DNA of 64,000 nucleotides, from positions 1 through 64,000 of the forward strand of contig JAYOTF010000008.1 in assembly GCA_038150265.1 (NCBI GenBank), read 5' to 3'. The first letter of the stretch is position 1. The number at the start of each line of letters is the position of its first letter. The notes under the pieces were generated by a model. That model saw nothing but the letters and a program-made list of their open reading frames with translations, ran no database searches and had not been told where the DNA came from. Shown piece after piece: positions 1-64,000 of this stretch. This DNA comes from Deltaproteobacteria bacterium. Lineage in GTDB: Bacteria > SAR324 > NAC60-12. Made by a program: the position numbers and the translations under genes.

Positions 1-205
1 TTGAGCGAATTCAGTCACACGACACAGAAGTGACCCCCCGAAAAGTCAATGTGAGCTCGCGTTGGGCGGGACCTGCTGGAGAAGTGGACGCGGTCAGTGA
101 GGAACTCTACTGAGCCCTGCGGCGAGGTCCTTCGTGCCTGTCGCGACTTCCGGGGGGCAGGGACACCATCGTTTCAGGCGAGCTGGAAGCGGCAGCAGGC
201 GGAAG

Positions 206-598
206 TCAGGGGGCGCGCAGGAGCCAGATGCCGAAGCCGCAGGCGAGGAGGGAGAGGATCAGGTTGAGGGAAACATTGAGGACGGCTCGTCCCCAGGCAC
301 CATCGAGCGCCAGCAGCCACGTCTCGAGGCTGAAGGTGGAGAAGGTGGTAAAGGCGCCCATGAAGCCGGTGGTGAGCAGGAGCTGAACCTCTGGACGAAG
401 CTCGAGTCGCTCGCGGAAGGTCCATGCCAGTGCGCCCAACAGGAAGGAGCCCAAGACGTTGACGGCCAGTGTTCCGTATGGAAGCGTGCTCCCAAGCCAC
501 TGGTTGACGGCGCGGGTCGCGAGGTACCGGGAGACCGCGCCTCCAGCTCCTCCGAGGGCCACAGCGAGGAGGGGGCTCCAGCCTGACAGAGCAGCCAT
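206..598 (-). CDS. crcB: Fluoride efflux channel Fluc/CrcB
   Basis: 130 aa with 4 hydrophobic segments and the Fluc motifs GGAGGAVSRY, GTLAVNVLGSFLLG and TTGFMGAFTTFSTFS. The start overlaps the stop of the upstream kinase at 598. Confidence 0.95.
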   Translation of the reverse strand: MAALSGWSPLLAVALGGAGGAVSRYLATRAVNQWLGSTLPYGTLAVNVLGSFLLGALAWTFRERLELRPEVQLLLTTGFMGAFTTFSTFSLETWLLALDGAWGRAVLNVSLNLILSLLACGFGIWLLRAP

Positions 599-2058
599 CA
601 GGCCTCCACCGACTCAATGGCGGTGGGATCCACCGGGAGGAAGACCTTGAAGGTCGTTCCACCACCGCTTCGGTTGCTAACAGAGATGTGCCCCCGGTGC
701 TGCTTGATGAGCGCATGGGTGATGGAGAGGCCCAGCCCGGTTCCCTTCCCGGCCGGCTTGGTGGTAAAGAAGGACTCGAAGATCTGGTTCTGCACCTCAA
801 TGGGAATGCCGGTTCCGGTATCGTGCACCTGCACCCAAACCCCATTTTCTCCCGCCAAGGTCCGAAGCGTGAGGGTTTTCTCCGGACACGGCTCCATTGC
901 ATCCCGCGCGTTGTTGATGAGGTTCGTGAAGACCTGCTCAAGCTGAATCTCATTGCAGCGGATCTCCGGGAGGTCGGTGGCCAGCTCCAACTGGATGGTG
1001 ACGTCATCCTTGCGGAGCTGAGGCCCCACCATCAGCAGCGTGTTGTCGATGATGGTGTTGATGGAGTGCCGGTTCATGGGCTCATTTTCACTCCGGCGGC
1101 TGTAGTTCCGGATGTGGTTGATGATCGCCGTGCAGCGGTCGACCATCTGCTCAATCGAGTTGAGCTTGGAGGCGGGGTCAAAGGACGTGGGCTTGGTGGC
1201 ATACGTCATCTTCAGCAGCTCCGCATTCATGCGGATGGCCCCCAGTGGGGTTTTGATCTCATGCGCAATCCCTGACGCCAGCTCGCCAATGGCAGAGAGC
1301 TTGGCCGACTGCACCAGCATGGTCTGGGCGTTTTGCAGCTCCTCATAGGCGCGGCGGAGGTCATCTTCTGTCGCCTTTTGCCGAACCTGCAGCTGCTGAA
1401 GCTCCTGGGTCATCTTGTTGAAGGCGACGGCTGTCTGCTGAAACTCATCTCTTCCGGAAACCGGAATGCGGTGGTTCCAGTCACCGGCGGCAATTCGTCC
1501 GGAGGCCTCCTGCAGCTTGAGGAGGTTCCGGGTGAGGTAGATGCCAAAGAGCAGCGACAGCATGGCGGAGAGGAACAGCTCAAGGGCGGCAATCAGCAGC
1601 GTCTCCTGACGGGCTGTGGCCAGAACCGCTTCAATCTCCTGTGTGGAAAATCCCAGCTCAACGCGGACGATGGTCCGGCCACTTTCCTGGATTTCGGCAA
1701 AGGTGTCGAAAACGCTGTCGGTGAGGGTATCCATGCCGACATCCGCTTGAAACGGGCGGCTCAGCAACGCTGCACTTCCCCCTTCTGCCAGGACCTGCCC
1801 TCCTCCAATCACCCGCGCATAAACCAGCCCCCGGTTCTGCAACACGTCGTCGACAAAGCTTTCGAGTGAGGCGAGGTCATAGGACAGGGTGGCATCCTTG
1901 GTCATGCTGGCAAACAGCTTGGCTGCCGTGTGGCTGGAACGGATCAACTCCTGCTCATGAGAAGTCTTGAGCGAGCTCAGACTGCTCCAGATCAGAATCG
2001 TCAGGGCCATCGCCTCAATGAGCGCGATGCCCAGGATGGTTTTCAGGCGGAAGGACAA
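598..2058 (-). CDS. Membrane sensor histidine kinase (2 TM, periplasmic domain, HAMP, HisKA, HATPase), NtrB-like core
   Basis: H-box GIAHEIKTPL, N-box QVFTNLINNARDAM, G1 DTGTGI, F-box FESFFTTK, G2 GTGLGL. A HAMP-like segment follows TM2. Confidence 0.93.
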   Translation of the reverse strand: MSFRLKTILGIALIEAMALTILIWSSLSSLKTSHEQELIRSSHTAAKLFASMTKDATLSYDLASLESFVDDVLQNRGLVYARVIGGGQVLAEGGSAALLSRPFQADVGMDTLTDSVFDTFAEIQESGRTIVRVELGFSTQEIEAVLATARQETLLIAALELFLSAMLSLLFGIYLTRNLLKLQEASGRIAAGDWNHRIPVSGRDEFQQTAVAFNKMTQELQQLQVRQKATEDDLRRAYEELQNAQTMLVQSAKLSAIGELASGIAHEIKTPLGAIRMNAELLKMTYATKPTSFDPASKLNSIEQMVDRCTAIINHIRNYSRRSENEPMNRHSINTIIDNTLLMVGPQLRKDDVTIQLELATDLPEIRCNEIQLEQVFTNLINNARDAMEPCPEKTLTLRTLAGENGVWVQVHDTGTGIPIEVQNQIFESFFTTKPAGKGTGLGLSITHALIKQHRGHISVSNRSGGGTTFKVFLPVDPTAIESVEA

Positions 2059-2077
2059 GAGCAGTCAGGCGTTGAGG

Positions 2078-2902: not shown

Positions 2903-3063
2903 CACAGGGGAGTTTGAAAGAGTCGTTGAGTGAGGTGCCGTGAGGAGACCCCGGAGGGTCTGCCACGGGCTTCTTGCCTTACCTGATGGCAAAGGTGCTT
3001 ATTCTGATGGGGCTTGCAGAAAGTCACAAGCAAACAACGACGTGTGGCGCACTTTCAGCGGGG

Positions 3064-4590: not shown

Positions 4591-4608
4591 GGGGGCGTGA
4601 AGTCGGGT

Positions 4609-17864: not shown

Positions 17865-19253
17865 TCAGAAACTGGCGTTTCCGGGGGTCCGGGGGAAGGG
17901 GATGACGTCTCGGATGTTCTTCATGCCCGTCATGAACTGAACCAGCCGCTCAAAGCCAAGCCCGAATCCGGAGTGGGGGGCGGAGCCAAAGCGCCGGAGG
18001 TCGAGGTACCACTCGTACTCGGATTCGGGCATGCCCATTTCCTGCATCCGCTGCTGCAGGCGTTCCAGGGAGTCTTCGCGCTGGGAGCCCCCGACAATTT
18101 CTCCGAGCCGCGGGAAGAGGACATCCATGGCCGCAACCGTCTTGCCGTCATCATTCTGCTTCATGTAGAAGGCCTTGATGTCCCGCGGGTAGTCGGTGAG
18201 GGTGACCGGTTTGCGGAAGTGCGTGTCGGTGAGGTAGCGCTCATGCTCAGACTGCAGGTCTGCGCCCCACTCCACCGGAAACTCGAAGGTCTGTCCGGAA
18301 GCCAGCAGGATCTCCACGGCTTCGGTGTAGGTCAGGACCTCGAAGGTGGAGTCCCGGATGTGTTCCAGGCTGGACACCAACTCCGGATCATACATCTTCT
18401 GGAGGAACTCCAGGTCGTCGAGGTTGCGCTCCAGGCACTCTGCAACAAGGAACTTGAGGAACTTTTCGGTGAACTGAACCATCTCCGGAAGCTCCATGAA
18501 CGCCATCTCGGGCTCAATCATCCAGAACTCGGCAAGGTGCCGGGACGTGTTGGAGTTTTCTGCCCGGAAGGTGGGGCCGAAGGTGTAGACGTTGGTGAAG
18601 GCGAGGGCCATGACCTCGGCTCCAAGCTGTCCGGAGACCGTCAGGTTGACGGGGGTCCCAAAGAAATCCTGGTGGTAGTCGATGGCTCCCGACTCGGTCC
18701 GGGGCGGCGCTTCCGGATCCAGGGTGCTGACCCGAAAGAGATCCCCGGCGCCTTCGGTGTCGCTGGCGGTGATGATCGGCGTGTGGGCGTAGAGGAACCC
18801 GTGCTCCTGAAAGAAGCGGTGGACGGTCCAGGCGAGGGTGTTCCGGATGCGGAAGACTGCGCCCAGGGTGTTGGTTCGGGGACGCAGGTGGGCGATCTCC
18901 CGGAGGAATTCCAGCGTGTGCCCCTTCTTCTGCAACGGGTAGCTTTCTCCGGAGGCCAGTCCGTAGATGTGAAAGCGCTTGGCCTGCACCTCAAAGGCCT
19001 GCCCCTTTCCGGGAGAGCGGACGAGCTCCCCTTCCACTTCCAGAGCAGCACCGGTGCCAACGGCTTTCAGCGCCTCGTAATTGGGGGTGGATTCATCGAC
19101 CACCACCTGCAGGCCGTTGCGGTTGGAGCCATCGTTGAGGTTGAGGAACGAGAAGCCCTTGGACGTACGCTTGGTCCGGACCCATCCCCGGAGCAAGACG
19201 GTGGAGCCAATCTGATGCTCCTCAAGCGTGGCCATGCGGTGAGGGGTGCTCAT
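17865..19253 (-). CDS. asnS: Asparagine--tRNA ligase
   Basis: OB fold GWVRTKR, motif 2 [25 protein letters not shown] and motif 3 GFGLGFER. Confidence 0.97.
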
Positions 19254-22416: not shown

Positions 22417-24819
22417 TTATTGAGCCGGAGTGGGCTCTGGAGGCTCAGCCGCTGGCGCCAGGTCTTCGGCCTCTGCCTTCTGGCCACGAAGCAGCGCCGG
22501 ATGCGTCTCCAGTGCCATTTCCAGCGCCTCGGTCAGGTTCCGGATGGCATGCAGCTCCAGGCCTCCTTTGATTTCATGAGGGATGTCCGCGAGGTCCTTC
22601 TCATTTTCAACAGGGTGCAGGACCTGGCTGAGGCCTCCGCGTTTGGCCGCCAGGAGCTTCTCCTTGAGGCCTCCGATTTCGGTGACGTGTCCCCGGAGGG
22701 TGATCTCTCCGGTCATGGCAACATCGTGCCGGACGGGAATCTTGGTGAAGGCGCTGATGATCGCAATGGTCAGCGGCAGGCCGGCCGAGGGGCCATCCTT
22801 GGGGGTGGCTCCTTCCGGAAGGTGCAGGTGCAGGTCGCTCTTGGCAAACAGCTCGGGGTTGATGCCCAGGTAGTCTGCATTGCTCCGGACGTAAGAATAC
22901 GCAGCCTGTGCCGACTCCTGCATGACATCCCCCAGCTTGCCGGTGAGCTGGATCTTTCCGGTGCCAGGCATCAGGGCGGCTTCAATGAGCATCAGCTCGC
23001 CGCCAAAGGAGGTGACGCCGAGGCCCATGGCCACTCCGACTTCATTGGCCTCTTCCTTGGAGTCGTGCTGGAACGGGGGCACCCCAAGCAGCTCACCCAC
23101 GAGCTTGGGGGTGACGATCATGGTCTTGTCTTCCTGACTCTTCACCAGGCGGGTGACAACCTTTCGGCAGATCTTGCCGACTTCACGCTCCAGGTTCCGG
23201 ACCCCGGCTTCTCGGGTGTAGTGCTGGATGATCTCCTGAATGGCAGACTTCCGGAAGCGGATGCGCTCAGGTGTGAGGCCATGCTGCTCGCACTGGCGGG
23301 CAATGAGGAAGTTTTCGGTGATGTGCTGCTTCTCCAGCTCGGTGTAGCCGGAGAGCTGAATCAGCTCCATGCGGTCCAGCAGCGGTCCCGGAATGCTCTG
23401 AACCGAGTTGGCGGTGCAGAGGAAGAGGACGTCGGAGAGGTCATACTCCACCTCAAGGTAGTGGTCGCTGAACGTGGCATTCTGCTCCGGATCCAGCACC
23501 TCCAGCATGGCGGCTGACGGGTCGCTGATGGAGCTCTGGTAGAGCTTGTCGATCTCGTCGATGAGCATCACGGGGTTGCTGCTCTTGCCCTTGCGGAGCG
23601 ACTGCACAATCTTGCCTGGCATGGCGCCAATGTACGTCCGGCGGTGTCCGCGGATTTCCGCCTCATCCCGGACCCCTCCGAGGCTGATGCGGACAAACTT
23701 GCGTCCAAGCGCCCGTGCCACCGATTTGGCCAGGGAGGTCTTTCCCACACCAGGAGGGCCCACGAGGCAGAGGATGGGCCCCTTGAGCTTGCCCTTGAGG
23801 TGCGCCACCGCGATGTACTCGACAATGCGTTCCTTGACCTTCTCCAGGCCGTAGTGGTCTTCATCAAGCACCTGCTGAGCCTTGTCGAGGTCGAAGTTGT
23901 CCTCCGTCCGGACCTGCCACGGCATCGACACCAGCCAGTCCAGGTAGTTCCGGACCACATTGGCTTCAGACGACATGGGAGACATCATGCGCAGCTTCTT
24001 CAGCTCCTTTTCCGCCTCCTCGCGGGCTTCCGGAGGCATCTGGCTTTTGGCAATCTGCTCTGCCAGCTCATCGGCTTCCGAACGCATGTCGTCACTTTGG
24101 CCAAGCTCCTTCTGGATGGAGCGAAGCTGCTCCTGAAGGTAGTCCTCCTTCTGGGTTTGGCTGATCTGCTTCTGGGCTTGCTGCCGGACCTCTTCTTCGA
24201 GGGACTGAACCTCCATCTCTTCTTCAAGCAGCGAGGCGATCTGTTCCAACCGAACCTGCGGATCGGTCAGGTTCAGGAGCTTCTGCTTGTCCTCTCGGGA
24301 AATTTCCAGGGCCGAGGCAATGAGGTCTGCCAGGGACTCGAGCTCCACCTTGTCGAGGTTCTTGAGCAGTTCGGTCCGAGTCTTCTTCTTGCTTTGCTTG
24401 AGGTGCCGCATGAAGAGCTCCCGGGCTCGCTGGGCCGAGGCTTCCAGTTTTTCGGGCTCAGCGATGGTTTCTTCCAGGGGCTGAATCTGCGCCAGGTATT
24501 CGTCTCGCAGCCGGGCGCCCAGCAGCTGTGCGCGCTGCTCTCCTTCAAAGAGCGCCTTGACAGTGCCATTCGGGAGTCGCATGACCTGCAGGACCTTCCC
24601 GAGCACCCCCACTTCATGGAGGTCTGCCAGCTGAGGCTCCTCGACGGAGGAGTCCCGCTGCGTGACCACGAAGATCTTGCGGTCGCCATTGAGCGCGCGT
24701 TCCAGAGCTTCCATCGACGCCTTGCGTCCGACAAAAAACGGGGTGGTGCTCTGTGGAAACACGACCTCCTCGCGCATGGGCAGGAGGGGCAACACTTGGG
24801 GTTTGGTTGAGTCTGTCAT
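22417..24819 (-). CDS. lon: Lon protease
   Basis: LON N-domain, Walker A GPPGVGKTS, RRTYIGAMPG and catalytic PKDGPSAG / GGLKEK. Confidence 0.97.
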   Translation of the reverse strand: MTDSTKPQVLPLLPMREEVVFPQSTTPFFVGRKASMEALERALNGDRKIFVVTQRDSSVEEPQLADLHEVGVLGKVLQVMRLPNGTVKALFEGEQRAQLLGARLRDEYLAQIQPLEETIAEPEKLEASAQRARELFMRHLKQSKKKTRTELLKNLDKVELESLADLIASALEISREDKQKLLNLTDPQVRLEQIASLLEEEMEVQSLEEEVRQQAQKQISQTQKEDYLQEQLRSIQKELGQSDDMRSEADELAEQIAKSQMPPEAREEAEKELKKLRMMSPMSSEANVVRNYLDWLVSMPWQVRTEDNFDLDKAQQVLDEDHYGLEKVKERIVEYIAVAHLKGKLKGPILCLVGPPGVGKTSLAKSVARALGRKFVRISLGGVRDEAEIRGHRRTYIGAMPGKIVQSLRKGKSSNPVMLIDEIDKLYQSSISDPSAAMLEVLDPEQNATFSDHYLEVEYDLSDVLFLCTANSVQSIPGPLLDRMELIQLSGYTELEKQHITENFLIARQCEQHGLTPERIRFRKSAIQEIIQHYTREAGVRNLEREVGKICRKVVTRLVKSQEDKTMIVTPKLVGELLGVPPFQHDSKEEANEVGVAMGLGVTSFGGELMLIEAALMPGTGKIQLTGKLGDVMQESAQAAYSYVRSNADYLGINPELFAKSDLHLHLPEGATPKDGPSAGLPLTIAIISAFTKIPVRHDVAMTGEITLRGHVTEIGGLKEKLLAAKRGGLSQVLHPVENEKDLADIPHEIKGGLELHAIRNLTEALEMALETHPALLRGQKAEAEDLAPAAEPPEPTPAQ

Positions 24820-43562: not shown

Positions 43563-43734
43563 GAAGGGACTCTCGAAACAAATCGTAAAATCAAAATCTT
43601 GAGCGGAGTCTCTTTCACTTTCAAGCGGAACTCCGGAGGAGGGGGTGCTTCCGGAAGCGGAAGCTTGTGCTTTGAGGCGCCTTCCCGCTATTTTGGAGGG
43701 CCTTTTTCTTCTCCATTTTTTCAGGAATTTTGTG

Positions 43735-46941: not shown

Positions 46942-48225
46942 TCAGGCAAACATGTCCTGAGTGATGCTGTCGTACCAGCCCTGAGCGTAGACCGCTTCCT
47001 GGGCGCGTGCGGCAGCATCTGCGTTTTTGGGGCTCACTCCCCCGGCTCCGGAAACGCCAGCGATCTTGCCTTCGTTGAACCGATAGACGGCTGCGACGGA
47101 GATGCTGTAGTTCGGAGTCACCAGGCTGTAGCAGGTGTTGGCAAACGAGGGCGCCACCGGATCCTCTCCCCGCAGAAGGGAGACAATGGCTGCGGCACAC
47201 ACCTTGGCCTGGCTGTTGGCCGAGAAGCCAGACTTGGGCATGGCACCGGCGATGCTGGCATCTCCAATGACGTGCACCTTGGGCATCTTCTCCGATTCAA
47301 AGGTGATCTGGTTCACCGGGCACCAACCCGCGTCGTTGGTGAGTCCGGAATCTCGGGCGATCTTGCCGGCCCACTGAGCCGGGATGAAGTTGATCACATC
47401 TCCCTTTTCCCAGCCAAACTCGGTCTCCACCTGCATGTTCGCGGCATCAATCTGCAGCACCTTTCCCCCGGCGCTGCCCTGCCGCCACTCAATGAGGTCG
47501 CGGTAGTGGAGGTTCCAGCCGTCGGTGAAGAGCGGCTGCTTGGAGAACTTCTCCTTCATGTCCAGAATCAGGACCTTGGACCTGGGTTTGTTCTGAGACA
47601 GGTAGTGCGCCATCATGCTGGCCCGCTCATAGGGTCCGGGCGGGCAGCGGAACGGGTTTTCGGGCGGGCAGATCACCACGGTTCCGCCATCGGGCATGGC
47701 CTCAAGTTGCTTGCGGAGCTGAACCGTTTGTGGGCCGGCCTTCCAGGCATGGGGCATCTTGTCTTCCACATCCGGACTGTGGCCCGGCATCTTGTCGTAC
47801 CGGACATCGACTCCGGGGGAAACGACGGCGCGGTCAAACGGAATGCGTGAGCCATCTGCCAGGACCACCGCGTTGGCTTCGACCCTGGATGCCCGAGCAT
47901 GCACCACCTTGACGCCATAGAGGCTTTCCAGCTTGGTGTAGCTGTGGGCAATGTCGTCCATCTGCTTGAGGCCACCGAGGACCAGGTTGCTGAACGGACA
48001 GGTGTAAAAGGTCTTGTTGGGCTCCACCAGCGTCACATCCAGGGAGTTGTCCATCATCTTGAGGTACTTGGCTGCCGTCGCGCCTCCAAAGCCACCGCCC
48101 ACCACCACGATCCGGGCGCTGGATGGGCTGACACGAGCGCTCTGAGAGGCAGTGTTGCAGCCGGCGAGGGTGGTGGCCCCTGCTGCGAGAAAGAGCTTGC
48201 TGAACTGTCTTCGGGTTACCTGCAT
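46942..48225 (-). CDS. fccB: Flavocytochrome c sulfide dehydrogenase flavoprotein (FccB/SoxF)
   Basis: Tat motif TRRQF, GGGFGGATAAKY, CPFSN, CPPGPYER, MPKSGFSANSQAK and NTCYS. Confidence 0.93.
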   Translation of the reverse strand: MQVTRRQFSKLFLAAGATTLAGCNTASQSARVSPSSARIVVVGGGFGGATAAKYLKMMDNSLDVTLVEPNKTFYTCPFSNLVLGGLKQMDDIAHSYTKLESLYGVKVVHARASRVEANAVVLADGSRIPFDRAVVSPGVDVRYDKMPGHSPDVEDKMPHAWKAGPQTVQLRKQLEAMPDGGTVVICPPENPFRCPPGPYERASMMAHYLSQNKPRSKVLILDMKEKFSKQPLFTDGWNLHYRDLIEWRQGSAGGKVLQIDAANMQVETEFGWEKGDVINFIPAQWAGKIARDSGLTNDAGWCPVNQITFESEKMPKVHVIGDASIAGAMPKSGFSANSQAKVCAAAIVSLLRGEDPVAPSFANTCYSLVTPNYSISVAAVYRFNEGKIAGVSGAGGVSPKNADAAARAQEAVYAQGWYDSITQDMFA

Positions 48226-48640: not shown

Positions 48641-49255
48641 TTATCGGATGACCGGAAGCGGTTTCATTTCCGGGCAGTCGCTCATGCAGGCGACATTCTG
48701 GGTGTCCGGGCGGTTATCCGGGATGAAGTTGTCCCGATTGGGCATTTCCATGGAAATGAGCTTTTCCCGGGTCAACTCCTCATCGTACTCCAGCAGGTAG
48801 TTCAGGTAGAGCACATACGCCGTAATGGCGTAGGTCTCTTCGGCGCTCAGGGACTGAGGCTCATAGAACGGCATGGCGCGTCGGATGTAGCTGAACAGCG
48901 TGGTGGCGTAAGGCCAGTAGCTGCCCACGGTCTTGGTCGGCTCGAGGGTGTTGAGGGTGTCCTCGGCTCCGGGAGCCGCAAGAACCGGCCAACGCCCCAC
49001 GGCTTCTCCAAACTCACCGTGGCACTGGGCGCACTTCATGATGTAGAGCGACTCGCCGGCTTCCGGGGTGGTCACCCCTTCCGGAAGTTCGTCTCCGACC
49101 TCATTGATGCTGATGTCCCAGCCGGACAGCTCTTGTGGAGAGATGGCTGTCCCGAACCCATAAACCAGACCGTCTCCAGCGGAGGCGGTGCTCGCCATTC
49201 CCAAGCATGCCCCGGCGAGGAGGGACTTTTTGAAACAATCAGCCCATCTGAACAT
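48641..49255 (-). CDS. soxD: Sulfane dehydrogenase cytochrome subunit SoxD (monoheme)
   Basis: CAQCHG, KTVGSYWPYATTLFSYIRRAMP and MPNRDNF. It overlaps the soxC end; start moved to ATG 49255. Confidence 0.9.
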   Translation of the reverse strand: MFRWADCFKKSLLAGACLGMASTASAGDGLVYGFGTAISPQELSGWDISINEVGDELPEGVTTPEAGESLYIMKCAQCHGEFGEAVGRWPVLAAPGAEDTLNTLEPTKTVGSYWPYATTLFSYIRRAMPFYEPQSLSAEETYAITAYVLYLNYLLEYDEELTREKLISMEMPNRDNFIPDNRPDTQNVACMSDCPEMKPLPVIR

Positions 49256-50645
49256 TGTACAGGTCTCCTTTTCCGTCGAGTTTCCAGGTGTAGATCGCGT
49301 TTTTATGATAGATGGAGTTGACCCCACGGGCGTCCCGGAGCTGGGCAAGGGTCGGCTGGACGAATCCGGTGCTGTCCATGGCTCGGCTTTGCAGCATCAT
49401 TTCCTGCCCGGGCTTCCAGTCGAAGGGCATCCGGAAGCGGGTGAGGCACTTCGAAAGCACCGGCTCCTGCAGGGTGGCTTCGGTCCAGTTGCGTCCGCCA
49501 TCCAGGGAGATGTCCACACGCTTGATGAAGCCACGTCCCGTCCAGGCGAGTCCGGAAAGCTCGTAGCGTCCGGGGCGGTCGAGGTGCTGACCGACGGAGG
49601 GGAAGGTGATCACGGAGTTGGTGTCTTGCACCCAGGTGAACTCGCGGGCCTGGCCTTCTCCCAGCAGGTCGGTGTACTTGGAGGTCTCCTCTCGGGTCCG
49701 CCACGGGTGAATGCCGAGCTTGAGGCGCCGGATCCACTTGATGTTCATGTTCCCCTCAAAGCCGGGGACGAGCAGGCGAATGGGGTACCCCTGTTCCGGA
49801 CGGAGCGCCTCGCCGTTTTGGGCATAGACGATCATGGCGTCATCCAGCAGCTTCCAGAGCGGGATGCTGCGGTCCATGGCTCCAGCGTCCGCTCCTTCTG
49901 CAAGGCACCAGGCGCCGTTGGCAGCATCGAGCCCCTCAGCGGCCAACTCCGGCGCTGTCTTGGACTGGGCGTAGAGGGCCCGTTTGACGAATTCCGGATT
50001 GATGCCGACTTCTTCCAGCAGCGTTGACACCTTGACACCGGTCCACTCGCAGCAGCTGATCATGCCGTGGGTGAACTGAACGGAGTCCATCTGCACCCCC
50101 TTCCACTCCATGCCGCTGTTGGCGGGGCATTCAATGAAGCGGATGTGGCTTTCGCTCGGGAAGCGCTTGAGGTCGTCCATGGTGAAGGACAGCGGACGCT
50201 CCAGCAGCGGGGTGCCGTCGGCATCGGTGCCGCCATGGATCACCAGCCGGTGCTCATCGGGGTGAATGGTGGGCATGCCTCCGTGGTGCCGCTCGAAGTG
50301 AAGGCCATTGGGGGTGATGATGCCCTGGAGGTGCTGCAGCGGGGTGAAGCTGATGGAGGAGTTCGGAGACGCGGTCAGCCAGCTGACGTTGCCCCGCTGG
50401 ACGTGAGCCTCAAACTCGGAGGGCGAGCCATAACCACGGGAGGTCACCCCCGGACCCAGGTGCTGGGACCATTCCGGAATGTTGGGCGGAAGGTTGCGGG
50501 TCTGGGCTTCTGCCATCACCGAGGATGCCCCAGCGGCAAGGGCTCCTCCGGTGGCCAGGGCCTGTTTGAAGAACTTGCGCCGGTTGAGCATCTCGGCGTA
50601 CTCCTGATTGATCTGCTGTTCCTCTTCCGGACGGATCTCCTTCAT
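49239..50645 (-). CDS. soxC: Sulfane dehydrogenase molybdoprotein SoxC
   Basis: Tat motif NRRKFF, ITPNGLHFERHH, Mo-ligand FIECPAN and LRPEQGYPIRL. Confidence 0.95.
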   Translation of the reverse strand: MKEIRPEEEQQINQEYAEMLNRRKFFKQALATGGALAAGASSVMAEAQTRNLPPNIPEWSQHLGPGVTSRGYGSPSEFEAHVQRGNVSWLTASPNSSISFTPLQHLQGIITPNGLHFERHHGGMPTIHPDEHRLVIHGGTDADGTPLLERPLSFTMDDLKRFPSESHIRFIECPANSGMEWKGVQMDSVQFTHGMISCCEWTGVKVSTLLEEVGINPEFVKRALYAQSKTAPELAAEGLDAANGAWCLAEGADAGAMDRSIPLWKLLDDAMIVYAQNGEALRPEQGYPIRLLVPGFEGNMNIKWIRRLKLGIHPWRTREETSKYTDLLGEGQAREFTWVQDTNSVITFPSVGQHLDRPGRYELSGLAWTGRGFIKRVDISLDGGRNWTEATLQEPVLSKCLTRFRMPFDWKPGQEMMLQSRAMDSTGFVQPTLAQLRDARGVNSIYHKNAIYTWKLDGKGDLYNVQMG

Positions 50646-50703
50646 GAGCTCTCCTAAGGTTGAGTGGGGCGGGAGGGCTTCCCGCCAGTTGCATTAAGGC
50701 GAA

Positions 50704-52413
50704 TCAAAGCTGGGCGAGGCCCGGATTGTTGGGGACTCCCTTGATGGTGGGGACGTTGGTCTGGAGGTTGGTGATGACCTTCTTGGCTCGCAGGTTCCGG
50801 GCCACAAGGTCCCACACGGGTTCGCCCTCCAGGGGCTGAGCGACACTGGCCCAGCCGCCCACCGGGTAGTCCCTGGACGGGTCAATGGGCTTGCCGTCCA
50901 GTTCCATGGCATCAATGCGTTGCCCCATTGGAGCCGTCGGGTTGATGCTGTACTGCAGGCCACCGACCCGGACCATGTCTCCTCCCTGCTGGTAGTAGGG
51001 GTCCTCATTGAAGAGGTTGTCGGCGACGTCCTCGAGAATGACCTTGAGCTGCGCTCCGGAGATGAGGTTCCGCGTCACCGTCGGATACGTCATGGAGGTT
51101 TGGGTCATGAGGTGATCAAACGTGATGGGCTGTCCGGGAAGCACACTCACTCCCCAGCGGAACCCTGGAGAGAAGGAGATCGGCGCATCAAGTTCCTCCA
51201 TCAGGGCATCACAGATGAGCTGGTCGAAGGTGCCGTTGAAGTTCCCTCGGCGGTAGAGGAGGGCTTCGGTGACAGCAAGCTCCTCGTTGAGCTTGTCGAG
51301 GTAGGGAGCCCGGACTTCGTCAATGAAGGTCTGCATGCCGGCATCCGCTGGAAGCAGGTCGGAGAAAACGGGAAGGAGCTTGTACTGGTACCCGCGGACC
51401 TGACCGTCTCGGACATCCAGGTCGAGGACGGAGAGGTACTTGCTGTTGGATCCGGAGTTGATGACGAGGGTCTTGCCTCCGGCGTTCTCCACTTCAATGG
51501 CACGGGGAACGGCGTCGTGGGTGTGTCCGCCCATGATCGCATCGACACCGGAAACGCGGCTGGCCATCTTGAGGTCCACATCCATGCCGTTGTGGGAGAG
51601 GACGATGACCACCTCAGCCCCTTCGTCCCGAGCCTGATCGACCATCTCCTGCATGCGGTCGTCGCGGATCCCAAAGGACCACTCCGGAACCATGTACCGG
51701 GGGTTCGCAATGGGGGTGTAGGGGAAGGCCTGCCCCACAATGGCCACCGCAGTGCCGTTGATCTCCCGGATCACATAGGGGCTGAAGACCGGGTCTTCAA
51801 AAGCGGTGTCGACCACGTTTTGGGCCACAAAGTCAATGCCCGCTTCGGCAAAGTCGTTCTCAATGACCTCGGTCACACGCTCGGCGCCAAAGGTGAACTC
51901 CCAGTGCCCGGTCATGACATTGACGCCCAGGCGCTTCTGGGCATCAACCATGTCCTGGGCATTGGTCCACAACGAGGTGGCTGAGCCCTGCCACGTGTCT
52001 CCGCCGTCGAGCAGGAGTGCTCCCGGACGGTCGGCCCGGACGCGATCAACGAGGGTCTTGAGGTGGGCAAAGCCTCCCACCTTTCCAAACTGTTCAGCGG
52101 CCCGGGCAAAGTCGAGGTAGGTAAAGGCGTGGGCCTCAAGGGAGCCCTTGGGGATGCCGTAGTGCTTGAGGAAGTGCTCGCCCACCAGGTGCGGAGGGTT
52201 GCCCTGCATGCCGGCAACACCGAGGTTGATGTTGGGCTCTCGGAAGTAAATGGGCAGCAGCTGCGCATGGCAGTCGGTGTAGTGGAGGAGGGAGACGTTG
52301 CCGAATGGCTTGACGTCATAGGGGCTTTCTTGAGCCTGAAGCCTCCAGGGAGTGATCCCGGCAACGGCTGCAGCGCTCAGGAGGCCCATGAACTCCCTTC
52401 GCGACAAATGCAT
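50704..52413 (-). CDS. soxB: Thiosulfohydrolase SoxB
   Basis: Tat motif SRREF, TDCHAQL, DGGDTWQG, HWEFT, LSHNG and GGHTHD. Confidence 0.97.
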   Translation of the reverse strand: MHLSRREFMGLLSAAAVAGITPWRLQAQESPYDVKPFGNVSLLHYTDCHAQLLPIYFREPNINLGVAGMQGNPPHLVGEHFLKHYGIPKGSLEAHAFTYLDFARAAEQFGKVGGFAHLKTLVDRVRADRPGALLLDGGDTWQGSATSLWTNAQDMVDAQKRLGVNVMTGHWEFTFGAERVTEVIENDFAEAGIDFVAQNVVDTAFEDPVFSPYVIREINGTAVAIVGQAFPYTPIANPRYMVPEWSFGIRDDRMQEMVDQARDEGAEVVIVLSHNGMDVDLKMASRVSGVDAIMGGHTHDAVPRAIEVENAGGKTLVINSGSNSKYLSVLDLDVRDGQVRGYQYKLLPVFSDLLPADAGMQTFIDEVRAPYLDKLNEELAVTEALLYRRGNFNGTFDQLICDALMEELDAPISFSPGFRWGVSVLPGQPITFDHLMTQTSMTYPTVTRNLISGAQLKVILEDVADNLFNEDPYYQQGGDMVRVGGLQYSINPTAPMGQRIDAMELDGKPIDPSRDYPVGGWASVAQPLEGEPVWDLVARNLRAKKVITNLQTNVPTIKGVPNNPGLAQL

Positions 52414-52487
52414 AGACGAAAAACAGTATGGAAGTTGAAAAGTGACGAGGCGAGGCCCTTTGCCGGAGCAAGGGGCCTCCGGAGGGA

Positions 52488-52790
52488 TCAGAAGCGGGGG
52501 CCCGCGTCTTTCTGGCTCATGGCTTGAGCGTATCCCAGCTCTCCCCAGTCCCGAACCATGATCACCAGCTTGCAGGCTTCTTCATAGTTGCCTGCCTTGG
52601 CTGCGGCTTCCGCATCCTTCATGGGGTTGGGCAGGGTGGCCATCCACCATTCGCCTCCCACCGAGGCGGCCTTCTTGCGAGACGCCTCTGCTTCCGCGTG
52701 GTACTGCTTGTAGGTGTCCTGGTTGCACTGAGCCAGGGCGACTCCTGAGGTCAGGAGGGCGGCTCCAAGCAATAGGGTGAGTTTTTTCAT
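52488..52790 (-). CDS. soxK: SoxAX-binding protein SoxK
   Basis: 100-aa exported Ala-rich helical protein between soxA and soxB, with KAASVGGEW and C-terminal QKDAGPRF. Confidence 0.75.
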   Translation of the reverse strand: MKKLTLLLGAALLTSGVALAQCNQDTYKQYHAEAEASRKKAASVGGEWWMATLPNPMKDAEAAAKAGNYEEACKLVIMVRDWGELGYAQAMSQKDAGPRF

Positions 52791-52800
52791 CAGAACCTCC

Positions 52801-53658
52801 TTATTTACGGGCGCCCGGCGAGTTGATCGCCAAGCCGTTACTCATGTAAGCAAGGAAGTACTCCAGGTTCCGGTACTCTGGGCCTTGCGCTTTGAAGGAT
52901 TTGGCTCGGACCTGCTCGTTGCAGCCTCCGAAGCGGCGGTGCAGGGTTCCCATGGCGCCCCACTTGGAGCGGTACACCGGAAAGTGCGTGGTGTGGCCAA
53001 GGGACGGGCTGAGGGTTTCCGAGCGGACCCGCATGCCGGAGTTGTACACATGGCAGTCGGCACAGGACATGTTGAGCTGTCCGCGCTTGGCGTAGTAGTG
53101 GTGCTTCCCGGCCTCATAGGCGGCCAGGGCTCCAGAGGTGCTGGGCGCTTCCAGGTTCTGCACCTTGCCGCGGGACATGAATCCGACGTAGGCGCTCAGC
53201 GAGGCGATCTTGCCCTTCTTCCACCCGAACGGCTTCTCTCCGTTGGCTTCCCGGCACTCGTTCAGAGCGAGCTCGAGGGTGACGACCATTTGGCGCTCCT
53301 CGTTCCAATGCGGGTAGTGCTGCTTGATGCCGTCTTCCAGCTGGTAGGGGAAGCAGTCCTGGTACGTCTTGCCATTGGCAAAGGGCGTGTTCCACAGCTC
53401 CTCCCCCTCACCAAGGGCGAGTTCATACGGAGGGAACTCCTCAATGGTCAGCCACTCCTCACGACCTGCTGCATTGACCGGCAGGGCGTAGGCGCCATCG
53501 ACGTAGTCTTCCATCGCAATTTCCGGGAACCGCTGCTGGAAGTACTGGACAAAGTGCTGGCGGTCTTCCTCTGGGTTGGCTTCGGCCCAGACGCTTGAGA
53601 CCACTCCTCCGCTCACCAGAAGGAGGCTGAGGGCACTGATCATAAATTTCTTCATCAT
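52801..53658 (-). CDS. soxA: SoxA cytochrome c (monoheme, type III)
   Basis: Single CADCH. The first heme site is replaced by lone Cys residues (YQDCF, NECRE). Active-site HRRFGGCNEQVR. Confidence 0.93.
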   Translation of the reverse strand: MMKKFMISALSLLLVSGGVVSSVWAEANPEEDRQHFVQYFQQRFPEIAMEDYVDGAYALPVNAAGREEWLTIEEFPPYELALGEGEELWNTPFANGKTYQDCFPYQLEDGIKQHYPHWNEERQMVVTLELALNECREANGEKPFGWKKGKIASLSAYVGFMSRGKVQNLEAPSTSGALAAYEAGKHHYYAKRGQLNMSCADCHVYNSGMRVRSETLSPSLGHTTHFPVYRSKWGAMGTLHRRFGGCNEQVRAKSFKAQGPEYRNLEYFLAYMSNGLAINSPGARK

Positions 53659-53704
53659 TATCTCCTAACGGGATGAGGAGGGTGCCGCCTCATCCGGGTT
53701 AACG

Positions 53705-54013
53705 TTAGCGAACGCTGGTTTTACCGGTGAAGGTCTCTCCCTTGTTGTCAACACAGGTCAGCTCAACCTTGTCTCCCTTCTGGCCCGTGTACTGGAAGGC
53801 GAGGTAGGGATTCTTGGAAACGGCCACGCTCCACTGGGCATTGAGCATGGTGGTGCCGTTGACCTTGGCTTCCACGGTCTGAATGAAGTACTCGGGGATG
53901 AGGTTCCCGTTCTTGTCCTTGGCCTGCCCGGTGTCCATGGGGTGCTGAACGAGGGCTTTGACCTCCACCACGTTTCCGGTTGCCTTTGCGCGCATGCGAA
54001 CACTGTTTGCCAT
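53705..54013 (-). CDS. soxZ: Sulfur carrier SoxZ
   Basis: HPMDTG, VSKNPY and DNKG. Confidence 0.95.
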   Translation of the reverse strand: MANSVRMRAKATGNVVEVKALVQHPMDTGQAKDKNGNLIPEYFIQTVEAKVNGTTMLNAQWSVAVSKNPYLAFQYTGQKGDKVELTCVDNKGETFTGKTSVR

Positions 54014-54059
54014 AATGGTCTCCTGGAGTGCCTAAAGTGAGGGGGAATGTTGTCCGAAA

Positions 54060-54524
54060 TTAACCGCCGCAGCCACCAATGGTGACCTTCACTTCCTTGG
54101 TCGCCTGGTACAGCTTGCCATCGGCCTTGACCACTGCGTGAACGTTGGAAGTCTTTCCCATCTTCAAGCGTGTGGAGGCGTAACCCCGCATGCCTGCGCC
54201 AAAGTTGAACTCGGCAGCCAGCGGAGACGGGTTGGCTTCCACCAAAATGGAGATGGACTCAATGTTCGGCAGCTCACTCTCCACCGTCACCGGGACCACA
54301 GCGCCGTTTTCGGCGATGTCCGGAGCCTTGAGGATGATGTTGTCGGATTCTTCCATGCTGCTGGAGCCATACAGCTCGCTGATCGCATCGGTGTACTGCT
54401 TGGACTTGAAGGCCTTCTGGTTCCAGGCGGCAAGCAGCTGCTTCGGCAGGGCCAGGCCGGCGACTGCCAGAGAAGCCAGGGTGCCCGTCCGAAATACGTT
54501 GTGCAAGAATGATCTTCGGTTCAT
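54060..54524 (-). CDS. soxY: Sulfur carrier SoxY
   Basis: Tat motif NRRSFL, APDIAENGAVVPV and C-terminal VKVTIGGCGG. Confidence 0.97.
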   Translation of the reverse strand: MNRRSFLHNVFRTGTLASLAVAGLALPKQLLAAWNQKAFKSKQYTDAISELYGSSSMEESDNIILKAPDIAENGAVVPVTVESELPNIESISILVEANPSPLAAEFNFGAGMRGYASTRLKMGKTSNVHAVVKADGKLYQATKEVKVTIGGCGG

Positions 54525-57362: not shown

Positions 57363-57365
57363 GGC

Positions 57366-60049: not shown

Positions 60050-60097
60050 GGTCGTCCCGTTGGAGAAGAAGCGGAGCCTGGCCCTGGAGGTCAGGGG

Positions 60098-60814: not shown

Positions 60815-61026
60815 ATCAGGTCGTCTGGAGGTCGGTGATGGGAGATGTGCCCTATTGGCGAACAACGTAACGCATTTCCTCTGGCACGCAAGCAAAAATC
60901 AAGGCCCTGGCCTGTGCCGGGAAAGGGGGGCTCCGTGGGCTGACAATCGGAATTGCCCGTTGGGGCTGAGTAGGCTATGTTGACTCGATTGACATTTTGT
61001 TCCTGCCTCCATCCGAGATAACGGCG

Positions 61027-62235: not shown

Positions 62236-62403
62236 AATGGCTTGATTGCTCAGGGATGCTGTGACAGGTTATGCACTTTGACTTTTTAGCGCCTTTGCAC
62301 CGAAACCTGTCCTTCAGTGTAGAGCGGTTGTTAAGGGACCGGCCTCTGGTGGGGTCGTCTCATGCGCTGCGCGATTCTTCGTTAATGTCCTAGGAGTTCC
62401 CGA

Positions 62404-63858
62404 ATGGAATTCATCACCGCCAAAGACCTCATCCCAATCATTCCGGAGATCATCCTCACTGTGGTGGCCCTGGCGGTCATGATGGCCGATCTGTTTGCTC
62501 CCAAGGAGCATCGAACCGATACCTTGGCGGTGGCAACGCTCGGCGGCTTCCTGCTCGCACTTTACGCGGAGTTTCAGCTTTACGGAACCAACGCCTCCGG
62601 TTTTTACGGAACCGTGGTGGCCGATGGGTACTCCATCCTCTTCGAAAGCATCTACCTGTTTGTGGGCATCCTGACGGTCCTCCTCTCGCGGCAGTACCTG
62701 GCCGACCACAACATGAATTACGGTGAGTACTACGTGCTGCTCATCAGCTCGGTCATTGGCATGATGTTCATGACCTCCAGCCTCGACCTGTTGGTCATCT
62801 TCATTGGCCTGGAGATCATGTCCATTTCCAGCTACATCCTGGTGGGCATGCGCCGCGGGGTGCCCCGCTCTGGCGAGGCGGCCCTGAAGTACCTCCTCCT
62901 GGGGGCCTTCTCCACCGGCTTCCTGCTCTACGGCTTCTCGCTGCTCTACGGAGCCACCGGCAGCACCTTGATTCCGGAAATCATTTACTCCCTTGGTCAG
63001 GAAGGCGCCGCGACCAATCCGCTGGCAATCGTCGGCGGCTCCATGATCATCATTGCCGTGGGCTTCAAGGTCGCGGTGGTGCCGTTTCACATGTGGACTC
63101 CAGACGTCTATTCGGGGGCTCCGACCCCGGTCACGGGCTTCATGTCTGCTGCCGCGAAGGCGGCAGGATTTGCCATGCTGGTGCGCATCCTGTTGACGGG
63201 CATGCCCATGGGTTCCGAAAACTGGAGCAACCTGCTCTGGCTGATTGCGGTCCTGACGATGACCATCGGCAACCTCATGGCCCTGCAGCAGAGTGACGTC
63301 AAGCGCATGCTGGCCTACTCGTCCATCGCCCACGCCGGCTACGTCATGGTCGCCGTGACGGTGGGGACGGATTCAGCCCTGAGCGGCATCCTCTTCTACT
63401 CCTGCGCCTATGCCATCATGGGAACCGGAGCCTTCGGCATCCTGACGATCACCCGGCACGGCAAGGCACCGGAAACCTTTGACGACCTCGCCGGCTACGC
63501 CAAGCAGCGGCCCTTCCTGGCCTTCCTGATGGCGCTGTTCATGCTGTCGCTCATCGGACTGCCCCTGACCGGTGGCTTCACGGGCAAGCTGCAGATCTTC
63601 GGTTCTGCGCTGGAAGAAGGCTGGGTCTGGCTGACGGTCATTGGGCTGCTCAACAGCGGCCTCTCGGTCTACTACTACCTCCGGGTGATTGTGTACATGT
63701 ACATGCGGGACGGTCATGCTCCTGCCACTGAAGACCTGCGGCAGCCTTCCGGGTTTGCCATTGCTGGCCTGATCGGCTCCGCGGTTGCGGTCCTCTACCT
63801 CGGGATCTTCCCGGAAACCTTCATGGAGTTGGCCGCCCTTTCGGTCCGAGGCCTCTAA
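62404..63858 (+). CDS. nuoN: NADH-quinone oxidoreductase subunit N
   Basis: About 14 TM segments with EAALKY, FKVAVVPFHMWTPDVYSGAPTP and KRMLAYSSIAHAGY. Confidence 0.93.
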   Translation: MEFITAKDLIPIIPEIILTVVALAVMMADLFAPKEHRTDTLAVATLGGFLLALYAEFQLYGTNASGFYGTVVADGYSILFESIYLFVGILTVLLSRQYLADHNMNYGEYYVLLISSVIGMMFMTSSLDLLVIFIGLEIMSISSYILVGMRRGVPRSGEAALKYLLLGAFSTGFLLYGFSLLYGATGSTLIPEIIYSLGQEGAATNPLAIVGGSMIIIAVGFKVAVVPFHMWTPDVYSGAPTPVTGFMSAAAKAAGFAMLVRILLTGMPMGSENWSNLLWLIAVLTMTIGNLMALQQSDVKRMLAYSSIAHAGYVMVAVTVGTDSALSGILFYSCAYAIMGTGAFGILTITRHGKAPETFDDLAGYAKQRPFLAFLMALFMLSLIGLPLTGGFTGKLQIFGSALEEGWVWLTVIGLLNSGLSVYYYLRVIVYMYMRDGHAPATEDLRQPSGFAIAGLIGSAVAVLYLGIFPETFMELAALSVRGL

Positions 63859-63924
63859 GCCTCTCCCCCTTCGGAGGCGCAAGCCTCCTCCCGCCGCACG
63901 TCACACTTATTGCATGGAGCGCCA

Positions 63925-64000
63925 ATGCCTGCAGTGCGTCGAGGATTCAGTCTGATGGAAGTCATGATCGTTGTGGTCATCATCGGAATCCTGGCAACCC
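63925..64000 (+). CDS. Type IV pilin / type II secretion pseudopilin, N-terminal fragment cut by the window end
   Basis: Not in the ORF track. It translates as MPAVRRG-FSLMEVMIVVVIIGILAT, a class III signal peptide with G|F and E5. Confidence 0.85.
   Translation, partial: MPAVRRGFSLMEVMIVVVIIGILAT

Follow-up and report, generated by a model that had tools for sequence, protein, structure and literature searches.

The question raised by this locus, the first 64,000 nucleotides of contig C8 of a SAR324-lineage genome (C8:1-64000 of G000; hereafter the window), is why it is crowded with copies of one palindromic hexamer, TCCGGA, and whether that word is a highly iterated palindrome (HIP) like the HIP1 of cyanobacteria. 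To our knowledge, the function of such palindromes is still not agreed upon, thirty years after they became known in cyanobacteria. The window holds 189 TCCGGA sites compared with 24.46 ± 5.38 in 100 dinucleotide-preserving shuffles (shuffle maximum 42); they run through positions 1..64000 at about 3 per kb, with 183 inside called genes and six outside (11368, 39307, 43632, 49080, 52478 and 56456). Exactly 30 of them start in the first 10 kb, the number that the first-pass annotation of the window had estimated by eye. The overabundance of TCCGGA is confirmed both here and in the genome as a whole; neighbouring copies are, in addition, spaced at the helical repeat of DNA, and it is this second property that, in our reading, points to a protein that senses two copies at once.

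The source genome, G000 (3,393,712 bp in 87 contigs, 61.2% GC, 97.8% complete), was called with a self-trained open reading frame (ORF) scorer, giving 2,657 genes and 86% coding sequence, and was compared with relatives in the same phylum, designated by other G numbers, with g numbers for genera and f7 for a distant family; the phylum set comprised 88 genomes and the family set 45. Homologues of a marker protein are found in metagenome-assembled genomes recorded as SAR324 cluster, Deltaproteobacteria or Lambdaproteobacteria. TCCGGA is the commonest hexamer of G000, with 9,711 sites, or one per 349 bp, nearly twice the count of the next hexamer. Its observed/expected (O/E) ratio is 8.69, 7.57, 3.95, 2.39 and 1.22 under Markov models of order 0 to 4 respectively. 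Coding sequence contains 8,589 sites compared with 2,071.5 ± 39 when synonymous codons are shuffled within genes (20 shuffles), and with 2,217 ± 44 under a more stringent one in which the bases adjoining each codon on both sides were preserved as well (8 shuffles); the excess therefore persists, at 3.9- to 4.1-fold, under both codon-preserving nulls. All three codon phases contribute, with counts of 2,009, 2,358 and 4,222 that are 4.2, 3.4 and 6.1 times the prediction from amino acids and codon usage. The word fills 33.7% of the permissive Ser-Gly contexts, 37.9% of those in phase 1 and 48.9% of those reading xxT-Pro-Asp/Glu, and dipeptide frequencies lean the same way (SG 1.40 versus GS 1.04; PE 1.65 versus EP 0.82). 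Composition alone predicts 0.31 sites per kb, whereas coding DNA has 2.94 and non-coding DNA 2.39.

The bases flanking TCCGGA carry no more than 0.077 bits, and the gaps between sites are exponential (2,224 longer than 500 bp with 2,238 expected; 469 longer than 1 kb with 520 expected; 30 longer than 2 kb with 28 expected), from which it follows that TCCGGA is not part of a longer repeat element. Counts in 1,231 windows of 5 kb have a mean of 14.5, a variance of 16.5 and a minimum of three sites. Selection for regular spacing at the kilobase scale was accordingly rejected. Two other words of G000 also depart from expectation: GTAGTA/TACTAC has an order-1 O/E of 9.65 (629 counts) and CTAG stands at 0.05 of expectation.

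How far shorter words account for the enrichment was assessed from the flanks of CCGG. In G000 CCGG is followed by A with a probability of 0.44, and of the 19,422 occurrences of the full word on the two strands, 15,918 would be expected if the flanks were independent; CCGG words with one correct flank are raised 1.4- to 2.3-fold, and CCGG with neither flank stands at 0.66–0.89 of expectation. The flank–flank odds ratio is 2.04 in G000, 1.57 in G039, 1.53 in G002, 1.31 in G001 and 1.03 in G062 (in a 400-kb sample). By our arithmetic 54% of TCCGG pentamers lie within TCCGGA, which means that a high-order Markov expectation is contaminated by the signal itself. The idea that a shorter word such as CCGGA explains everything was thus borne out in part, by the order-4 O/E of 1.22, and no further, as every one-mismatch neighbour is at or below 2.3 at order 1 compared with 7.6 for TCCGGA, leaving the full word more than 3-fold above each of them. 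Independent half-sites fit additive binding by a symmetric dimer and a strand-symmetric flank mutation bias alike, and this statistic alone does not decide between the two. A PfoI-like reading of the word as TCC-N-GGA was rejected, since its 2-fold excess consists of TCCCGGA and TCCGGGA, which are overlapping half-sites, and TCCAGGA and TCCTGGA are near baseline.

In G000 the distances between sites have a spectrum that peaks sharply at 10.45–10.5 bp, with maxima near 9, 20, 31, 41.5, 52, 62.5, 73, 84 and 95 bp and signal out to about 300 bp. Power falls from 11.5 in the 20–100 bp band to 8.2 at 100–200 bp, 5.9 at 200–300 bp and 1.4 at 300–400 bp, with a stable phase. For coding sites the power at 10.5 bp is 20.0; a random-occupancy null over the 20,801 amino-acid-permissive contexts, with per-phase probabilities kept, gave a mean of 0.6 and a maximum of 3.6 in 300 trials. 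The permissive contexts themselves have a power of 0.1 at this period and nine unrelated abundant hexamers 0.1–0.9; CTCCGG, which overlaps TCCGGA, reaches 7.7. The sequences at the spacing peaks are nearly all distinct (50/50 at 41 bp and 49/49 at 42 bp). Pairs that do not fall within one gene retain a power of 7.1 at 10.5 bp, whereas the neighbouring periods of 10 and 11 bp give 0.3 and 0.7, with period 3 absent and all three distance-mod-3 classes phased. An origin of the signal in alpha-helices or coiled coils was rejected on these grounds, the permissive contexts being flat, different-gene pairs being phased and the registers of congeneric genomes differing, as described below.

Apart from TCCGGA itself, the phasing is specific to the outer half-sites, which keep step with full sites at a power of 12.0; no such phasing to full sites was seen for central one-off variants (0.6), flankless CCGG (2.0), AGGCCT (3.0) or GGCGCC (0.7). 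Nor does AT, AA/TT, CC/GG or CG content around the sites oscillate at 10.5 bp (power 0–1.8), and a general 10.5-bp structural code around the sites was rejected for this reason. There is an extra peak in G000 at exactly 9 bp, TCCGGA-NNN-TCCGGA, made up of 45 pairs with 27 distinct sequences (one of them at 2344-2358 in the window); it is also present in G062 and absent from G032. Pairs at this distance might form a hairpin with a stem of 6 bp and a loop of 3 bases; alternatively, they might specify short repeats in a peptide.

Pairs were then counted genome-wide by gapped patterns in all 45 family genomes, the G000 counts agreeing with those of our own script. At separations of 36–38, 41–43 and 46–48 bp, the middle bin being close to four helical turns, G000 has 64/129/52 pairs and its congener in g1, G002, has 44/67/39. 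The members of g11 gave 14/79/14 (G032), 25/47/24 (G033), 8/31/8 (G034), 27/64/23 (G037), 6/23/3 (G038), 20/29/7 (G012), 23/72/28 (G039), 10/37/18 (G040), 24/24/8 (G041), 2/22/2 (G042), 3/19/10 (G043), 14/39/12 (G046) and 3/22/2 (G047); those of g4 gave 10/36/7 (G005), 7/11/10 (G059) and 10/10/5 (G060). The register is reversed in a second congener of g1, G001 (63/22/57), and in three genomes of g19: G061 (58/7/47), G062 (75/10/68) and G063 (26/0/33). By our arithmetic the random expectation for each 3-bp bin is about 83 in G000, 22 in G032, 52 in G062 and 57 in G001. Sequence samples gave full spectra. In 400 kb of G032 the best period is 10.45 bp with a power of 17.7 (null maximum 5.5) and a phase of −3 degrees, peaks lying at about 21, 31, 42 and 52 bp and three-bp sums reaching 0 in between; in 764 kb of G062 the 15–100 bp band has a power of 11.0 (null maximum 4.7) and a phase of 179 degrees, with peaks near 27, 37.5, 48, 58 and 68 bp and troughs at 21–22 and 31–33 bp that are almost empty. 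Helical phasing thus recurs across genera, and g19 and the g1 congener G001 prefer the opposite register.

Enrichment itself varies among lineages of this small phylum, which contains enriched genera, an unenriched sister genus and strong avoiders. With the reversed word AGGCCT as composition control, the TCCGGA:AGGCCT ratio is 3.9–5.9 in g1, the genus of G000, which has the highest absolute density (2.2–2.9 per kb); 14–30 in g19; 1.6–32 among 18 genomes of g11, where the three lowest genomes are only 51–57% complete; 3–8.4 in g4; and about 4.6 in g6. It is about 1.0 in the nine genomes of the sister genus g2 and 0.01–0.14 in seven genomes of other families. Hexamer ranks in relatives rest on fetched samples, in which TCCGGA is the top hexamer by count in G002 (g1, 60% GC; 2.25 per kb), G062 (g19, 57% GC; 2.31 per kb) and G039 (g11, 43% GC; 1.94 per kb, above AAAAAA), and ranks 1,921st in G056 (g2, 45% GC). 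A top rank at 43–61% GC set against this low rank in G056 makes the enrichment independent of base composition, and density levels off near 2–3 sites per kb regardless of GC.

At the other extreme, five avoiders were tested. Three of them (G017, G083 and G084) shun ACCGGT as well (0.04–0.08 of control), that is, CCGG in general; in G086 and G087 the depletion is specific to TCCGGA, at 0.047 and 0.010 compared with 0.61 and 0.43 for ACCGGT. G084, which avoids CCGG-containing hexamers 20- to 60-fold, encodes a full HpaII-type restriction–modification pair on its contig C5 (L043:4919-7050; RE_HpaII at 400 bits, with an adjoining C5 methyltransferase at 353 bits). With three of five avoiders shunning CCGG generally, the swing from avoidance to enrichment is weakened as a sign of a TCCGGA-specific enzyme. 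There is no restriction-site avoidance of the word in G000, where the departure has the opposite sign. In the G062 sample other xCCGGy palindromes are depleted (CCCGGG 0.17, GCCGGC 0.19 and ACCGGT 0.28 of expectation) while TCCGGA is at 7.6, so palindrome avoidance and TCCGGA enrichment can coexist.

The fate of individual sites was followed in an alignment of 379 kb of G002 with G000 (81.6% identity; four-fold-site identity 0.53). The aligned sites comprise 491 shared, 611–619 restricted to G000 and 359–361 restricted to G002, according to which of two counts is taken. The Jaccard index for TCCGGA is 0.336 by comparison with 0.173 ± 0.076 for 177 words of the same composition, a rank of 287th of 3,413. 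Codons are better conserved inside the word than outside it (TCC.665/.612, GGA.639/.475, CGG.712/.580, CCG.655/.539 and xxT.632/.488), with no consistent excess in this alignment for the GAx codon, whose third base lies beyond the word. By a modest margin, TCCGGA sites are hence better conserved than control words and than the same codons at other positions, and the synonymous positions that make up the word are kept above background between relatives. A two-state chain fitted for each permissive context gave a persistence (a−b) of.367,.252 and.399 in phases 0, 2 and 1, compared with −.02 to.37 for control synonymous states, and equilibrium frequencies of.30–.51 compared with.05–.23. A persistence at the top of the controls together with a far higher equilibrium implies faster gain and, in this rough model and by our own arithmetic, about 1.3- to 4-fold slower loss. 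The scaled pressure per site, which we calculate from occupancy odds relative to the codon-usage expectation, is S ~1.6–2.3; this is weak, of the size of codon-usage selection or biased conversion. Taken with the use of all codon phases, the density in non-coding DNA and the variation among lineages, the conservation of synonymous positions bears out the proposal of the first-pass annotation that TCCGGA behaves as an HIP1-like iterated palindrome at the level of DNA.

Other words stood out in the same alignment. The best conserved were CATGTA, GTAGTA and ACTACT (Jaccard 0.62–0.74). CCTAGG has 57 copies in the aligned 379 kb of G002 and one in the aligned G000 sequence; this contrast and the low frequency of CTAG in G000 suggest lineage-specific avoidance, possibly under CCTAGG- or CTAG-directed restriction pressure.

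A cause was sought among DNA methyltransferases. Profile searches of G000 matched no C5 methyltransferase (PF00145), Vsr (PF03852), Type I/IIG N6 methyltransferase (PF02384), SeqA (PF03925) or MutH (PF02976), and a motif scan of its ORFs found no PCQ/ENV-motif protein. The motif scan returned only two candidate DNA amino-methyltransferases, on contigs C45 and C51, both with SPPY as motif IV, which is typical of N4-cytosine enzymes. The C45 candidate (258 amino acids, beta class; PF01555, 81 bits) is closest, among solved structures, to DNA cytosine-N4 methyltransferases and a Thermus modification methylase. G001 has an intact copy (71% identity), but the equally enriched G002 has only a fragment, and the gene was rejected as the cause on that account. 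Directly upstream of it and of a 311-amino-acid ORF without a family match (C45:1404-5096, L001) lies a retron-type reverse transcriptase of 469 amino acids that scores 200 bits against the retron St85 family model, below the cut-off of 235; the locus may be a defence island.

The C51 candidate (C51:1-1387, L003) is cut by the contig end in G000 and has a full-length orthologue of 730 amino acids in the nearest relative (L018:1951-4143), in which about 350 residues of Arg/Asp/Glu-rich repeats (EDRPRR-like units) precede the methyltransferase domain. The open frames of this type measure 664–732 amino acids in g1, 558–614 in g19, 494–555 in g11 and 433 in g2. Matches are limited to weak ones with PF01170 and TIGR01177, and the substrate could be DNA or RNA. 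No restriction gene adjoins it, and a conserved gene partner was not forthcoming beyond synteny with an EamA-type transporter, its sole conserved neighbour. The gene occurs in 33 of the 45 family genomes, including all the strongly enriched genera (g1, g19, g11, g4, g6 and g3), and in the five strongest enrichers, which belong to g11 and g19, an intact C5 methyltransferase is absent and the only PF01555 matches are weak ones corresponding to the C51-type gene. It occurs as well in seven of the nine g2 genomes with their ratio of about 1.0, in non-enriched G010 and in CCGG-avoiding G017. Presence in unenriched g2 means that it cannot be a sufficient cause, and it was rejected as one; judged by this distribution it may be necessary for enrichment, and a role as writer or reader of the word would be speculative.

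We propose that TCCGGA is a lineage-specific word of the HIP kind that is under weak directional pressure and is read pairwise by a symmetric DNA-binding protein, a reading to which we give a probability of roughly 55%. A genome-wide pressure acting on DNA would write TCCGGA by point substitution into genes and spacers alike, and, being weak, would fill 34–49% of the positions that proteins permit, giving about 2–3 sites per kb at any GC. An abundant DNA-binding protein or enzyme of symmetric (dimeric) build would bind the word, strict about the CCGG core and tolerant of changes at the outer T/A positions. This reader would sense two copies at once, through bridging, looping or phased bending, with pairs on the favoured helix face being kept and others lost. 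Spacing that is quantised at the helical repeat within about 100–300 bp, distances at which torsion of the DNA counts, is what leads us to infer a binding site for a pair-sensing protein, and with it selection or biased fixation beyond mutation alone. A mutation bias explains the half-site statistics and not the phasing, and a methyl-directed repair ratchet explains accumulation and not the phasing. The phasing requires an agent that responds to how two copies are rotated relative to each other, such as a symmetric protein that bridges or loops them, or one whose bends in the DNA reinforce or offset each other. Readers that differ in geometry could account for the two registers, as could same-face pairs of opposite selective value. 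Pairs of sites shared by G000 and G002 are the most phased (74 in phase versus 46 out of phase), which weakly favours differential retention over phase-dependent creation.

Several observations weigh against this proposal. Pairs of lineage-specific with shared sites are barely phased in the same alignment (82:79 and 44:38), site conservation does not depend significantly on the phase of the neighbour (.466 versus.429), and turnover is high, as the shared and lineage-specific counts given above attest. The 397-kb sample of G001 has troughs at 21, 31–32 and 42–43 bp, yet its periodogram value of 2.1 is not significant against a null 99th percentile of 3.69, the sample being underpowered; the sample of G002 stands out in the 100–200 bp band only (5.5); and two-bin counts in the distant family f7 are small and mixed (G077 16:4, G079 6:15, G074 9:9, G075 8:2, G069 6:0 and G076 2:8). 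The opposite register of G001, a congener of G000, and of g19 is not easily explained by a single conserved reader. Placement at the kilobase scale is Poisson-like, and a simpler flank preference fits the half-site statistics, as shown by the order-4 O/E and by the odds ratio of 1.03 in G062. The gene annotation is crude. No reader has been found, SeqA and MutH being unmatched in G000, where CCGG-family endonuclease-like genes were not searched for.

The explanations that compete with a pair-sensing reader differ in what they make of the phasing. The first-pass annotation had put forward an orphan methyltransferase with biased repair, which as stated is not supported in G000, with C5 methyltransferase, Vsr and MutH all unmatched, the one-mismatch neighbours undepleted and the C51-type gene shared with unenriched genomes. 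In its wider form, a resident methyltransferase would methylate TCCGGA or its CCGG core, and methyl-directed or very-short-patch-like repair favouring the methylated strand or the cognate sequence would ratchet near-sites into the word. A conserved SPPY methyltransferase-like gene, without an adjoining restriction gene, in all strongly enriched genera is what such a scheme would need, the enrichers otherwise have very few DNA methyltransferases, and both faster gain and slower loss are as a ratchet would have them; HIP1 is tied to orphan methyltransferases and a ratchet of this kind is proposed for it (Elhai 2015, PMC4390886). Against this, the C51-type gene is carried by seven of nine g2 genomes, G010 and G017, its matches leave a DNA target putative, and the C45 gene is a fragment in G002; deamination-type neighbours are not depleted (order-1 O/E 1.51 for TCTGGA/TCCAGA and 1.0 for TTCGGA/TCCGAA); and a ratchet by itself predicts neither helical phasing nor two opposite registers. 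We regard it as unlikely, though the strongest of the competitors. A context-dependent mutation bias at the flanks of CCGG would dispense with reader and function altogether: the base after CCGG would drift towards A on each strand, and TCCGGA would be the product of two independent half-site preferences. The order-4 O/E of 1.22, the 15,918 of 19,422 counts given by independent flanks, odds ratios of 1.03–2.04, the 1.4- to 2.3-fold enrichment of the half-sites themselves, the Poisson-like scatter and the quick turnover all agree with this. It does not account for phasing limited to TCCGGA and its outer half-sites, with registers opposite in sister lineages; for loss that is slower as well as gain that is faster; for a density alike (about 2–3 per kb) from 43 to 61% GC; or for dipeptides skewed in the matching direction (SG versus GS, PE versus EP). 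Additive binding by a symmetric dimer would, moreover, give independent half-sites equally well, and we consider a bare flank bias distinctly improbable.

Two further possibilities bear on the word as a whole. Reportedly, a 2024 preprint links HIP1 to methylation-dependent transformation, and TCCGGA, possibly in methylated form, might likewise be a DNA-uptake or self-recognition sequence that biases transformation towards like DNA and spreads by molecular drive. Its density (one per 350–500 bp), its presence in all frames, its enriched one-off variants and its turnover resemble those of uptake sequences, and the same link for HIP1 is made in a 2026 paper in Genome Biology and Evolution (PMC13756078). 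A 6-bp palindrome gives little specificity, however, the known uptake sequences being non-palindromic words of 9–12 bases and the flanks of TCCGGA adding no more than 0.077 bits; helical-repeat spacing and opposite registers are also not obviously predicted by uptake drive, and we hold this to be quite improbable. That the word arises secondarily from codon usage, from amino-acid composition or from a dispersed repeat has in its favour that CCG, CGG and TCC are preferred codons and that one 45-bp repeat in the window carries TCCGGA. This is scarcely tenable: it is already contradicted by the 3.9- to 4.1-fold excess after two synonymous shuffles, by 2.39 sites per kb in non-coding DNA, by the uninformative flanks and by the distinct sequences at the 41-bp (50/50) and 42-bp (49/49) peaks.

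Within the window, the local features that had first drawn attention to the word were re-examined against the site list. All nine sites that had been placed in asnS (asparagine--tRNA ligase, 17865..19253, − strand; NF003037, 649 bits with a cut-off of 414) are in that list, with codon phases 0, 0, 2, 2, 0, 2, 1, 0 and 1, and all three phases are used. A supposedly intergenic pair at 43632..43655 (unstranded) exists, with its members 18 bp apart, but only the site at 43632 lies outside called genes, that at 43650 falling just within a called ORF of uncertain start. The 45-bp repeat is a tandem repeat at 34225..34353 (− strand; 2.9 copies, 97% matches) with the word in each unit, as had been said (sites at 34258, 34303 and 34348), and sits within the gene for an 864-amino-acid protein with a response-regulator-like N-terminus. 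An in-phase pair lies at 23907..23954 (unstranded), 42 bp or four helical turns apart, in an 800-amino-acid gene (22417-24819). The sox genes, which belong to a cluster at 49239..54524 (− strand) recognised by family matches and comprising soxC, soxB, the SoxAX-binding protein gene, soxA, soxZ and soxY, had been described as containing TCCGGA; this is so for soxC (six sites) and soxB (three) but not to any extent for the four small genes (52488-54524, about 2 kb), which have one site between them. Adjoining the sox genes, at 46942-48225 (− strand), is a 427-amino-acid flavoprotein that scores below threshold against a type III sulfide:quinone reductase model, selenoprotein subtype (91 bits compared with a cut-off of 525).

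The suggestion, also made in that first annotation, that TCCGGA might serve as a chromosome-organisation signal has gained unexpected support from the helical-repeat spacing of inter-site distances. We put forward, tentatively and with less conviction than the pairwise reading itself, that TCCGGA may be the genome-wide docking word of a hitherto undescribed, sequence-specific chromosome-organising system in SAR324-cluster bacteria, in which a symmetric protein, bound at thousands of copies on each chromosome, would couple neighbouring ones via helix geometry. If this were true, it would explain why copies within about 100 bp occur almost only at whole turns in some lineages and at half-integer turns in others, and TCCGGA would become the first demonstrated case of a helical-phase code in an iterated palindrome, tying words of the HIP type to DNA architecture at the scale of a single complex. 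Helical-repeat spacing with two registers is a physical mark of the sort expected from the involvement of a protein complex or of phased bending of the DNA. The HIP phenomenon appears here in a different, globally abundant and uncultured marine phylum, with a different and shorter word, and a trait that is on, off or avoided among close relatives offers the contrasts needed for gene-finding by phylogenetic profiling. TCCGGA leaves its mark on some dipeptide frequencies and on about 1% of the sequence of these genomes, which matters for composition-based binning and for codon models. Enzymes of the BspEI/Kpn2I type have TCCGGA specificity and would cut this DNA about every 350 bp unless it were methylated.

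How TCCGGA compares with known systems depends on which of its properties is considered. Among systems in which a short palindrome is read by proteins, Dam/GATC of Gammaproteobacteria is marked by an orphan methyltransferase and read by SeqA and MutH. SeqA needs two hemimethylated GATC sites on the same helix face, favouring whole-turn spacing, and TCCGGA pairs likewise prefer one helix face in G000 and G032 (10.45–10.5 bp, with maxima near whole turns). The differences are that GATC occurs near chance frequency, that G000 has no match to SeqA or MutH, that methylation of TCCGGA is only hypothetical, and that g19 and G001 prefer half-integer turns. Dcm/Vsr differs in that PF00145 and PF03852 are unmatched in G000 and that the neighbours derived from T:G mismatches are undepleted (1.51 and 1.0). 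Two-site type IIE/IIF enzymes of the CCGG family (NgoMIV and Cfr10I, with the looping studies of SfiI) act on two sites and are helical-phase-dependent at short spacing. They share with TCCGGA a CCGG core with specified flanks and a phase-dependent range of up to about 300 bp; restriction, unlike the case here, yields avoidance and not enrichment, and within the phylum HpaII-type restriction–modification was found only in the CCGG-avoiding G084, the enrichers not having been searched for such genes.

Uptake words offer a likeness of another sort. The DNA uptake sequence (DUS) of Neisseria and the uptake signal sequence (USS) of Pasteurellaceae are genome-wide words at about one per kb, of 9–12 bases, non-palindromic and with known receptors; like TCCGGA they occur in genes and spacers, are lineage-specific and are spread by a weak drive. 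TCCGGA differs as a 6-bp palindrome whose flanks carry at most 0.077 bits, and we know of no helical phasing for either uptake sequence.

The closest parallel is with the cyanobacterial HIPs, both HIP1 itself (GCGATCGC) and its alternatives (Elhai 2015, PMC4390886; Xu, Lawrence & Durand 2018, PMC5861425). HIP1 is reported at a 15- to 300-fold excess and with a periodicity of 10–90 kb (Xu et al. 2018, PMC5861425), and one alternative HIP is tied to an rCCGGy methyltransferase (Elhai 2015, PMC4390886); recent work on HIP1 correlates gene families with the word by phylogenetic generalised least squares (PGLS)-type analysis (Rodriguez-Cruz et al. 2026, PMC13756078). The likeness extends to a perfect palindrome that greatly exceeds its expected frequency and occurs in non-coding DNA as in every reading frame, with one-off variants raised, to sites that are conserved above control words and patchy among relatives, and to orphan methyltransferases as the suspects. 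The literature searched, which did not cover most subscription journals, contained nothing on TCCGGA as an over-represented word or on palindromes of SAR324. By comparison with HIP1, TCCGGA is a hexamer and not the octamer GCGATCGC, and the records of its host are of the SAR324 cluster and not of cyanobacteria; its fold excess is lower (about 8- to 11-fold against the 15- to 300-fold of HIP1) and its density higher (one per 349 bp); and it has a candidate orphan methyltransferase only, one that is conserved but also present in non-enriched g2. Its spacing, further, is quantised at the helical repeat with two registers, where the text of Xu et al. (PMC5861425) uses 'helical' and 'helix' 0 times. 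TCCGGA is thus HIP-like in behaviour, lies outside the HIP1 definition by sequence and by taxon, and adds to the known properties of such words a new one, helical phasing.

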